Positions 6,482-8,331 of a stretch of 12,701 bases of DNA are shown here, piece by piece. Source of the DNA: a virus; UHGV virus genome UHGV-0102869; one strand, given 5' to 3'. Numbering within the stretch: the first letter of the stretch is position 1; the number at the start of each line of letters is the position of its first letter. Both the position numbers and the translations under genes were made by a program. Below the pieces are notes generated by a model. It saw only the letters and a list, made by a program, of their open reading frames with translations, was not told where the DNA came from and made no database searches.

Positions 6482-7045
6482 ATGAGGCTAATCGTGGGTA
6501 AGCATCACTGGAAAATAGAAAAACAGCCTGAGTGGTACGTGAAAGCTGTCAGAAAAACTATCGCGGCGTTGCCGGGTGGTTACGCTGAAGCGGCTGACTG
6601 GCTCGATGTAACAGAAAACGCTTTATTCAACCGCCTTCGTGCAGATGGCGATCAGATTTTCCCGCTGGGATGGGCAATGGTTTTACAGCGTGCTGGTGGC
6701 ACTCACTTCATTGCTGACGCTGTGGCGCAGTCTGCAAATGGCGTCTTTGTGTCTCTTCCTGACGTCGAGGATGTGGACAACGCCGATATCAACCAACGCC
6801 TGCTGGAAGTCATTGAACAGATCGGCAGTTATTCAAAACAGATTCGTTCAGCAATTGAAGACGGTGTAGTGGAACCGCATGAGAAGACAGCAATTAACGA
6901 TGAGCTGTACCTCTCAATTTCGAAGCTGCAGGAGCATGCAGCACTGGTCTACAAAATCTTTTGCGTTTCAGAAAGTAGTGACGCCCGCGAGTGTGCAGCT
7001 CCGGGCGCCGTGGCGTGTCGTGACTGTGGAGAAACTAACGCATGA
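6482..7045 (+). CDS. CII-like phage regulatory protein (Phage_CP76 / YdaT-like family, from memory), 187 aa
   Basis: First sizeable gene after cro in the rightward operon; the family name is recalled, not verified. The start may instead be the GTG at 6494, which has GAGG upstream. Confidence 0.55.
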
Positions 7046-7380
7046 ACAGTTTAACAACACACTACCGTCGCTCGCAACTGATTGCGCTTCCTGTACCGGG
7101 TGGAAAAGCGAAGGTGGAGTATTGCTATGCAGTAAATGTACCAGGTGACAGGGAAATTGTAACCCACAGCTTTGCAGAGTGGGCTGTGGGTGATTTCAAC
7201 CGGCAGAAGGAGACAGTCCTTTGCGACAAGTTAACCGCTGGTTCAAAGATCACTACGGAGTGCCCGTCAGAGTCATTCGTTGGGAGCCGGAAACACAACG
7301 GGTTATCTACCTCCGTGAAGGCTATGAGCATGAGTGCTTCAGCCCGCTCGAACAGTTTCGTCGTAAATTCAGGGAAATAG
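7042..7380 (+). CDS. Uncertain ORF (112 aa as annotated); the C-terminal half looks out of frame. Possible frameshifted gene or two overlapping small genes.
   Basis: ATGA overlap with the preceding gene. The first 60 residues or so look protein-like; from about 7221 the +1 frame (TTG at 7221 with AAGGAG 8 nt upstream, stop at 7398-7400) encodes a more protein-like peptide [58 protein letters not shown]. Confidence 0.4.
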
Positions 7381-7389
7381 AGGTCGGTC

Positions 7390-8331
7390 ATGAGCACTAA
7401 ATTAACCGGCTATGTATGGGATGGTTGCGCTGCGTCAGGCATGAAATTATCCAGCGTGGCAATTATGGCCCGCCTGGCTGATTTCAGTAATGACGAAGGT
7501 GTGTGCTGGCCATCAATTGAAACCATTGCCCGTCAGATTGGCGCGGGGATGAGTACCGTCAGAACGGCTATCGCACGGCTGGAAGCAGAAGGCTGGTTAA
7601 CGCGTAAGGCGCGTCGCCAGGGTAACCGCAATGCGTCGAATGTTTATCAGCTTAACGTTGCGAAGCTTCAGGCAGCGGCATTTTCTCAACTGTCAGATTC
7701 TGACCCGTCAAAATCTGACGCATCAAAATCTGACCCGTCAAAATTTGATGCGTCGAAATCTGGCAAAAAAGCGGGTTTTCACCCGTCAGAATCTGGCGGG
7801 GATCCGTCAGTAAAATCAAAACATGATCCGTCAGATAAAAAACCTTCTCGTCCGGACGCTTCGCAACCGGACACGCAGACGGATGAACAGGATTTTTTAA
7901 CTCGCCATCCTGATGCGGTTGTATTCAGCCCTAAAAAGCGCCAGTGGGGAACGCAGGATGATTTGACCTGCGCACAGTGGCTCTGGAAAAAAATCATCGC
8001 CCTGTACGAGCAGGCCGCCGAATGTGACGGCGAGGTGGTTCGTCCCAAAGAACCGAACTGGACAGCCTGGGCAAACGAAATTCGCCTGATGTGTGTGCAG
8101 GATGGTCGTACTCACAAACAAATCTGCGAGATGTACAGCCGCGTCAGCCGCGATCCGTTCTGGTGCCGTAACGTGCTCAGCCCGTCGAAGCTGCGGGAAA
8201 AATGGGATGAGCTTTCCCTGCGCTTATCGCCGTCCGTCAGCACGTACACAGAAAAACGCGAAGACCCGTACTTCAAAGCCAGTTACGACAATGTGGACTA
8301 CAGCCAGATCCCGGCAGGATTCAGGGGGTGA
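7390..8331 (+). CDS. Replication initiator, lambda O-like: N-terminal helix-turn-helix domain, low-complexity linker encoded by an iteron array, and a distinct C-terminal domain; 313 aa
   Basis: N-terminal region (SVAIMARLADFSNDEGVCWPSIETIARQIGAGMSTVRTAIARLEAEGWL) resembles O-type initiator N-domains. The gene contains tandem DNA repeats followed by an A-rich stretch, as ori-lambda does inside O. Confidence 0.8.
   Translation: MSTKLTGYVWDGCAASGMKLSSVAIMARLADFSNDEGVCWPSIETIARQIGAGMSTVRTAIARLEAEGWLTRKARRQGNRNASNVYQLNVAKLQAAAFSQLSDSDPSKSDASKSDPSKFDASKSGKKAGFHPSESGGDPSVKSKHDPSDKKPSRPDASQPDTQTDEQDFLTRHPDAVVFSPKKRQWGTQDDLTCAQWLWKKIIALYEQAAECDGEVVRPKEPNWTAWANEIRLMCVQDGRTHKQICEMYSRVSRDPFWCRNVLSPSKLREKWDELSLRLSPSVSTYTEKREDPYFKASYDNVDYSQIPAGFRG
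7691..7841. repeat. Iteron array (candidate replication origin) inside the O-like gene: four tandem 15-bp units TCTGAC(C/G)C(G/A)TCAAAA at 7699-7758, three further CCGTCAGA-containing copies at 7780-7835, then an A-rich stretch
   Basis: Repeats read directly from the sequence; each unit carries a TGAC-N-GTCA partial palindrome. They encode the SDSDPSKSDASKSDPSKFDASKS linker of the initiator. Confidence 0.6.

Follow-up and report, generated by a model that had tools for sequence, protein, structure and literature searches.

We analysed a stretch of viral DNA of 12,701 nucleotides (nt) from UHGV virus genome UHGV-0102869 (the window), concentrating on the interval between ymfL, which encodes a CII-like regulator, and an O-like replication initiator gene. 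This interval very probably holds two independently initiated, overlapping genes, both of them conserved. The first is ymfM (positions 7042-7380, plus strand), an open reading frame (ORF) of 112 amino acids (aa) starting at ATG; the second is an ORF of 59 aa (7221-7400, plus strand) that starts at TTG in the -1 frame relative to ymfM and encodes a member of the DUF4222 family. The C-terminal tail of YmfM would accordingly be a stop-free extension across the DUF4222 gene, without constraint on its amino-acid sequence. Both ORFs are present and conserved, the second belongs to a Pfam family, selection is frame-specific, the ymfM frame avoids stop codons and other phages carry the two genes apart; from these patterns we infer that both ORFs are translated.

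Two conserved ORFs in different frames

The ymfM ORF starts 10 nt downstream of a likely Shine-Dalgarno sequence (GGAG, 7028-7031, plus strand), its ATG shares bases with the TGA stop of ymfL (7043-7045) as ATGA, and it ends at TAG (7378-7380). It agrees with E. coli K-12 b1148 at 334/339 nt and 109/112 aa, with all three amino-acid differences in the tail, and its product matches phrog_1170 over 112 of 112 positions (E = 2.9e-70). YmfM homologues are mostly 112-117 aa long and the biggest cluster contains 1295 members, while Pfam and NCBIfam scans returned no family match for the product. An earlier note on this DNA, made from the sequence alone, had described the ORF as protein-like for about 60 residues and Ser-rich thereafter, and this description is borne out. 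Residues 1-60 (7042-7221) form a conserved domain under purifying selection, for which AlphaFold gave a predicted local distance difference test score (pLDDT) of 57-74, remaining moderate to about residue 66. Residues 61-112 (7222-7377) are Ser-rich (12 of 52), predicted to be disordered, free of amino-acid constraint and free of stops, with pLDDT below 40 at residues 68-112 and 54 for the whole model.

In a full HMMER scan with YmfM residues 1-60, the distant homologues were stand-alone proteins of 59-68 aa; besides this small-protein family, the scan gave only motif-level matches to DUF7507 and the Listeria-Bacteroides Ig-like repeat. The N-terminal part occurs in three divergent yet recognisably related classes, each with an open frame, and all retain the ATGA coupling and an MNSL start. 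As a separate observation, residues 19-50 (7096-7191) had multi-stretch HMMER matches to large Ig-like repeat proteins (for example P0212, with 13 stretches), which may hint at a beta-hairpin fold or reflect motif-level convergence and are offered as a lead only.

The second ORF is well beyond chance expectation and is a genuine member of DUF4222: its 59-aa peptide matches PF13973 at 67.3 bits (cut-off 27; E = 8.6e-19) over profile positions 3-52 of 53, is identical to WP_001250269.1 from the Prokaryotic Genome Annotation Pipeline (PGAP) and also matches phrog_1343. The TTG start, the AAGGAG Shine-Dalgarno sequence 8 nt upstream (7207-7212, plus strand), the peptide quoted in the earlier note and an end 11 nt inside the O-like gene could all be confirmed in the sequence. 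The frame label in that note needs correction, as the two starts lie 179 nt apart (7221 minus 7042), placing the ORF in the -1 (equivalently +2) frame and not in the +1 frame. This frame is closed upstream by TGA at 7191-7193, TTG 7221 is the earliest possible start, and the stop (7398-7400) lies 20 nt beyond that of ymfM, giving an out-of-frame overlap of 160 nt between the two ORFs. We found 139 DUF4222 homologues in a set of 5.8 billion proteins, nearly all of them 43-86 aa and stand-alone. AlphaFold modelled the 59-aa protein with confidence (pLDDT 83.8) as a five-strand barrel plus helix, corresponding to a generic SH3/Tudor/KOW barrel without a specific structural match. Since the family has a fixed place directly upstream of replication initiator genes, it may act within the replication module.

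A possible 6-bp hairpin at 7205-7223 (GAAGGA / UCCUUU, loop of 5) pairs the DUF4222 Shine-Dalgarno sequence with the first bases of the TTG start and would be opened by ribosomes translating ymfM. Its fold lacks significance as a masking structure (z = -1.7) and other sequence classes show no obvious pairing of this kind, so we made no use of it.

Each ORF shows selection in its own frame, ymfM in its N-terminal half and DUF4222 throughout the overlap. We compared the proportions of nonsynonymous and synonymous differences (pN/pS; Nei-Gojobori proportions) for each frame and region. Across the first 56-60 codons, the ymfM frame gave pN/pS of 0.37, 0.44 and 0.53 in the three sequence classes, against 0.87-1.37 in the other two frames. 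The pattern differs in the 159-nt overlap, where the DUF4222 frame gave 0.18, compared with 1.76 for the ymfM frame and 1.69 for the third (null) frame; amino-acid constraint within the overlap is thus on DUF4222 only.

Polymorphism follows the same division. Our IMG/VR sample consisted of the best 80 loci, all of E. coli type and 79 of them usable, and is informative about polymorphism but not about divergence. Both ORFs are intact in 79 of these 79 loci (112 aa, 59 aa and a TTG start). Variable sites in the N-terminal half of ymfM fall at codon positions 1, 2 and 3 in the ratio 2/6/14, and 13 of the 14 variable sites in the overlap are third codon positions of DUF4222. As a result, the 79 loci encode two variants of DUF4222 versus 27 of YmfM, the YmfM differences being concentrated in the tail.

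The layout extends well beyond this sample. The locus is matched at ≥80% coverage in 2,031 of 5,426 complete E. coli genomes, and both frames are open at 28 loci of other genomes (including Citrobacter, Enterobacter, Kluyvera, Kosakonia and Atlantibacter), with DUF4222 identities of 70-98%. At 25 of these 28 loci the position homologous to TTG 7221 carries an ATG (n = 23) or GTG (n = 2) start, and purine-rich Shine-Dalgarno motifs stand at the same place upstream of the DUF4222 start in 29 related loci. The earlier note had not anticipated that the 112-aa ORF would prove conserved over its full length in its own frame; the alternative-frame peptide has many homologues as well.

The two genes are also found apart or in other relationships. 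Stand-alone DUF4222 genes that overlap the start of a replication gene by 4 nt occur in Serratia BZS1, Yersinia YeP2, Citrobacter phiNP and EKP1, with no ymfM-like ORF. Locus L128 has the order CII, YmfM-like (68 aa), KilA-N/ANT, DUF4222 (59 aa) and O-like gene, and at locus L129 a YmfM-like gene of 63 aa ends 11 nt into the DUF4222 gene in a different frame relation. In a prophage of Entomohabitans teleogrylli (L126), a 78-aa YmfM-like gene (2501-2740) directly precedes the O-like gene, and the other frame keeps just the first and last few DUF4222 codons (...VQPVDHFRERFKRVDR, then the stop), that is, an internal deletion of the embedded gene. The mosaic proteins P0195, P0208 and P0190 join other N-terminal classes to the window-type tail. 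The ancestral order was probably a YmfM-like gene of ~60 aa, DUF4222 and the replication gene, as in L129. The earlier suggestion that a second gene with its own start overlaps a short one agrees with all of this: homologues of DUF4222 stand alone, carry their own ATG or GTG with a Shine-Dalgarno sequence and in some phages lie apart from ymfM.

Three of the loci (L016, L026 and L042) are enterobacterial-type prophages in records titled Vagococcus sp., Geobacteraceae metagenome-assembled genome and Elizabethkingia phage EKP1, and the EKP1 DUF4222 is closely similar to that of E. coli phage CharmingMan. These host labels probably stem from contamination or from wrongly assigned hosts.

Stop avoidance, possible coupling and rival explanations

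Across the overlap, the ymfM frame is stop-free in 47 of 47 distinct sequences, which all share the same terminal codon. Given the DUF4222 protein, the chance of an open ymfM frame is 0.05 under E. coli codon usage and 0.28 under within-sequence synonymous shuffling. Codon choice in DUF4222 is informative here: Val codons that precede a codon starting with A are GTT (n = 50) or GTC (n = 18) and never GTG or GTA, whereas elsewhere in the gene they are GTG (n = 12), GTC (n = 17), GTT (n = 7) and GTA (n = 1). GTG or GTA before an A-starting codon would create TGA or TAA in the ymfM frame. Overall, 9.3% of the single-base changes that are synonymous in DUF4222, all of them transversions, would make a stop in the ymfM frame, and yet no such change is among the 102 or more that parsimony places at the third positions of codons whose amino acid is invariant (naive P = 5e-5). 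Transversions account for 18 of 28 changes at free fourfold sites versus 2 of 12 at risk sites, and both of the latter occurred in lineages with C as the next base, that is, in non-risk contexts. Stops are present in the equivalent of the ymfM frame in the stand-alone DUF4222 genes of BZS1, phiNP, EKP1 and L128. Premature stops in the ymfM frame thus appear to be selected against, while the tail appears not to be selected for its sequence.

The geometry at the 3' end offers a possible reason. The ATG of the replication gene is in frame with the ymfM-frame stop (TAG or TAA) and separated from it by exactly 9 nt at 28 of 30 loci. The genes that begin there encode proteins of 281-455 aa with at least four different N-terminal types. 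The position of the DUF4222 stop varies, with overlaps of 11 to 92 nt with the next gene. In the window, TAG and three codons separate ymfM from the O-like ATG at 7390, which is in frame with the ymfM ATG (348 nt); the DUF4222 gene ends 11 nt beyond it. The explanation we prefer, tentatively, is that the open frame may serve to couple translation of O, through termination and reinitiation, to the ymfL-ymfM reading line.

Under this model, both genes would belong to the early-right operon of the prophage. The ymfM gene would start at ATG 7042, coupled to the ymfL stop through ATGA, with its first ~60 codons encoding a small conserved domain, and the 59-aa DUF4222 protein with its SH3/Tudor-like barrel would be initiated from its own Shine-Dalgarno sequence and TTG 7221 in the -1 frame. 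A stop near the start of the DUF4222 gene would have been lost from ymfM in the e14/SfIV/mEp390 group, allowing ribosomes in the ymfM frame to read across it. Read-through would add the 52-residue tail, whose sequence would be dictated by DUF4222 and would evolve without amino-acid constraint. Selection would keep the ymfM frame free of stops so that translation ends 9 nt before the replication-gene ATG, and termination right at the replication-gene Shine-Dalgarno sequence would couple its translation to the ymfL-ymfM reading line.

Several points weigh against the two-gene reading or parts of it. The tail of YmfM shows no amino-acid constraint, leaving stop avoidance as the one line of evidence for its translation, and that argument depends on many independent substitutions while the parsimony counts were made over related sequences. 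The equivalent frame is open by chance in the stand-alone DUF4222 genes of YeP2 and L129, so that the chance of an open frame is ~0.3 per lineage. With regard to coupling, a GAGG of its own precedes the O-like ATG, and the O start is not masked by any significant RNA structure (z = +0.6). Finally, PGAP makes no ymfM call, and our literature search returned no proteomic or ribosome-profiling data for either product and nothing linking ymfM with DUF4222, ribosome profiling or overlapping genes.

Existing annotations imply two single-gene alternatives. According to the PGAP view, DUF4222 is the real gene, the 112-aa ymfM is an erroneous call carried over from older annotation, and 7042-7220 would be a leader without translation. 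PGAP indeed calls just DUF4222 and leaves the 175 nt downstream of ymfL unannotated, and the lack of a family match, the unconstrained tail and the poor whole-protein model of YmfM are in keeping with this. We nevertheless regard it as improbable, given the low pN/pS of the N-terminal half in the ymfM frame compared with ~1 in the other frames, the concentration of its polymorphism at third positions, the ATGA coupling and MNSL start of all classes, the stand-alone homologues of 59-68 aa in the same operon position and the avoidance of ymfM-frame stops across DUF4222. The converse, that ymfM alone is real and the DUF4222 ORF accidental, is implied by NC_000913.3, which annotates ymfM alone, and expression of the ymfM ORF causes filamentation (bioRxiv 10.1101/2020.11.19.390815). 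We give it almost no credence: the Pfam match of DUF4222, the difference in pN/pS between the DUF4222 and ymfM frames of the overlap (0.18 versus 1.76) and the fact that Serratia, Yersinia and Citrobacter phages have stand-alone DUF4222 genes ahead of a replication gene all oppose it, and the filamentation construct also held the Shine-Dalgarno sequence, the TTG and DUF4222 codons 1-53.

The other alternatives treat the locus as one gene of about 118 aa, as the earlier note had proposed, naming mutation, sequencing error and programmed shift as possible causes. A single ancestral gene broken here would explain why the 112-aa ORF changes character after residue ~60 and why a good peptide follows in the other frame, but the same two-frame layout in every usable IMG/VR locus and at 28 loci of other genomes, with DUF4222 divergence of up to 30%, its presence in over two thousand complete E. 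coli genomes and the near absence of DUF4222 homologues longer than 86 aa leave it a vanishingly small probability. Frameshift mutation or sequencing error was therefore rejected on the strength of conservation within the E. coli population and across species. A programmed -1 frameshift that fuses the YmfM N-terminal domain to DUF4222, besides or instead of separate products, is suggested by the -1 relation of the DUF4222 frame, which is open for 9 codons before TTG 7221, by the weak TTG start of the E. coli type and by rare single-frame variants of 118-119 aa (P0150, P0178 and P0184). We searched from -75 to +45 of the junction for an X_XXY_YYZ heptamer in the ymfM frame, the slippery site that the earlier note had proposed to look for, and it was absent from the window and from 26 of 29 other loci. 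The fold of 7185-7260 was not significant as a stimulatory structure (z = -1.72; 11 of 200 shuffles fold equally well). Other genera have ATG or GTG with a Shine-Dalgarno sequence at the DUF4222 start, and in L022, L038 and phage mEp390 (L006) a DUF4222-frame stop lies 0-1 codon before its ATG, leaving no room for an upstream frameshift; in L128 the genes are parted by another gene. Without a conserved slippery heptamer or a significant junction fold, and with a downstream frame that has its own Shine-Dalgarno sequence and start, this candidate is largely refuted, and we consider it very unlikely. Whether homologues are single-frame, as the earlier note asked, has a mixed answer: the variants of 118-119 aa are, but they are rare and differ in their junctions, and DUF4222 homologues are nearly all 43-86 aa.

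We found four rare single-frame YmfM-DUF4222 variants (118-152 aa) and a 102-aa deletion fusion. No two of them share a junction and each comes from one Logan, ENA or NCBI contig, the pattern that sporadic indels would give. These fusions of the YmfM N terminus to DUF4222 by different indels or deletions (P0085, P0150, P0178, P0184 and P0209) come from single metagenome or Sequence Read Archive assemblies.

Conflicting annotations and the identity of SfiC

NC_000913.3 lists 'cell division inhibitor YmfM' (b1148) with no further coding sequence at the locus. For a genome 100% identical to the window and for a K-12 derivative, PGAP lists just a 180-nt DUF4222 coding sequence (WP_001250269.1) with the bounds 7221-7400, and phage records carry one ORF or the other. 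The two sources thus disagree completely on the same E. coli DNA, and comparative evidence supports both genes. A conserved 59-aa gene is therefore probably missing from the reference annotation of E. coli K-12, the best-annotated bacterial genome. Each ORF was already known separately from databases; what is new is that both are real, that their overlap is conserved with stop avoidance and that the assignment of SfiC is ambiguous.

Inconsistent annotation of the same embedding recurs in the ST64B, Stx-phage and cdtI group. In this class (1358-2515 of L005, which is sb41 of Salmonella phage ST64B, and L039, L040, L044 and L045), the ymfM-like frame runs from the MNSL N terminus across DUF4222 into an ORF with Ash (PF10554) and Rha (PF09669), for a total of ~385 aa. 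PGAP annotates the class in two ways, either as a 387-aa Rha without DUF4222 or as DUF4222 plus a 301-aa Rha that starts inside DUF4222.

The conflict bears on function because ymfM has been named as SfiC, the SOS-inducible division inhibitor of e14 (Ansari et al., bioRxiv 10.1101/2020.11.19.390815). In that study, the ymfM 'open reading frame' was placed in pBAD24 and ymfM was deleted by lambda Red, and no start-codon, stop-codon, frameshift, tag or western controls are described (bioRxiv 10.1101/2020.11.19.390815). The ymfM ORF in pBAD24 includes the Shine-Dalgarno sequence, the TTG and codons 1-53 of 59 of DUF4222, comprising the entire Pfam domain. Both the construct and the whole-ORF deletion therefore expressed or removed both products, making the SfiC assignment ambiguous. 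The N-terminal domain of YmfM, which evolves faster and is presumed to be strongly expressed, is the likelier effector of the two. It is rather unlikely that the embedded 59-aa DUF4222 protein causes the SfiC division block wholly or in part; if it did, this would be the first function for DUF4222, a family found next to replication initiator genes in many enterobacterial phages. The SfiC effector consequently needs re-testing with frame-separated products. The locus is also a clean natural case of a frame kept open without amino-acid constraint, and as such is useful for the study of overprinting and translational coupling.

Setting of the locus and related systems

The window corresponds to the immunity and early region of a lambdoid prophage of the e14/SfIV type, and positions 6400-8400 are 98% identical to Shigella phage SfIV. 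An integrase gene (50-1213) and an S24 repressor gene (5485-6159) lie on the minus strand. The ymfL gene (6482-7045, plus strand) was identified by matches to Pfam Phage_CP76 (E = 1.4e-13) and to the NCBIfam YmfL family NF041471 (169.8 bits), and the O-like, or primosomal, replication initiator gene (7390-8331, plus strand) by Pfam HTH_36 (E = 4.3e-11). Counterparts of the latter in SfIV, SfII and other phages are annotated as O or primosomal protein, and its likely Shine-Dalgarno sequence, judged from the sequence, is the GAGG at 7380-7383 (plus strand), which abuts the ymfM stop. The O-like gene is followed by PerC, Dam, KilA-N, DUF968/HNH and antiterminator Q genes in this order. The longest Dam ORF (from GTG 8789) overlaps the 3' end of the PerC-family ORF (8328-8822) by 34 nt (8789-8822), and the true Dam start may lie further downstream than GTG 8789. 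No Rfam family matched anywhere in the window, and no promoter-like site was found in 6100-7600.

The closest counterpart is ymfM (b1148) of e14 in E. coli K-12, which is the same gene in the same operon place between ymfL and the O-like gene; the O-like gene is intact in the window prophage, whereas K-12 has an oweE/aaaE chimera instead. The literature on e14 treats ymfM as a simple 112-aa gene, while its C-terminal half is here the unconstrained overprint of another gene. The product of 7221-7400 is identical to WP_001250269.1 of PF13973, and its embedding inside ymfM is noted in neither annotation.

Embedded out-of-frame genes are familiar from lambda Rz1 inside Rz, phiX174 E inside D and Bacillus subtilis comS inside srfAB. 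The present locus resembles these in that a longer ORF carries, in a different frame, a small gene with its own initiation, and in that both frames are open. It differs in several ways: the gene that is older and under constraint is the embedded one, constraint on the enclosing ORF is confined to the part upstream of the overlap, and the overlap takes up the 3' half of the enclosing gene instead of lying in its interior, with the embedded gene extending 20 nt past the stop of the enclosing one. Genes with a programmed -1 frameshift, such as lambda G/GT, dnaX tau/gamma and the IS1 and IS3 transposases, likewise have an upstream ORF followed by a protein-like -1 frame. Unlike these, the locus has no slippery heptamer or stimulatory structure, its downstream frame has its own Shine-Dalgarno sequence and start, and its parts occur separately elsewhere.

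With regard to function, lambda Kil, Rac KilR and Qin DicB are small prophage division inhibitors (cited in bioRxiv 10.1101/2020.11.19.390815), and the likeness lies in a small (~60 aa) prophage product of the early operon whose expression blocks Z-ring formation.

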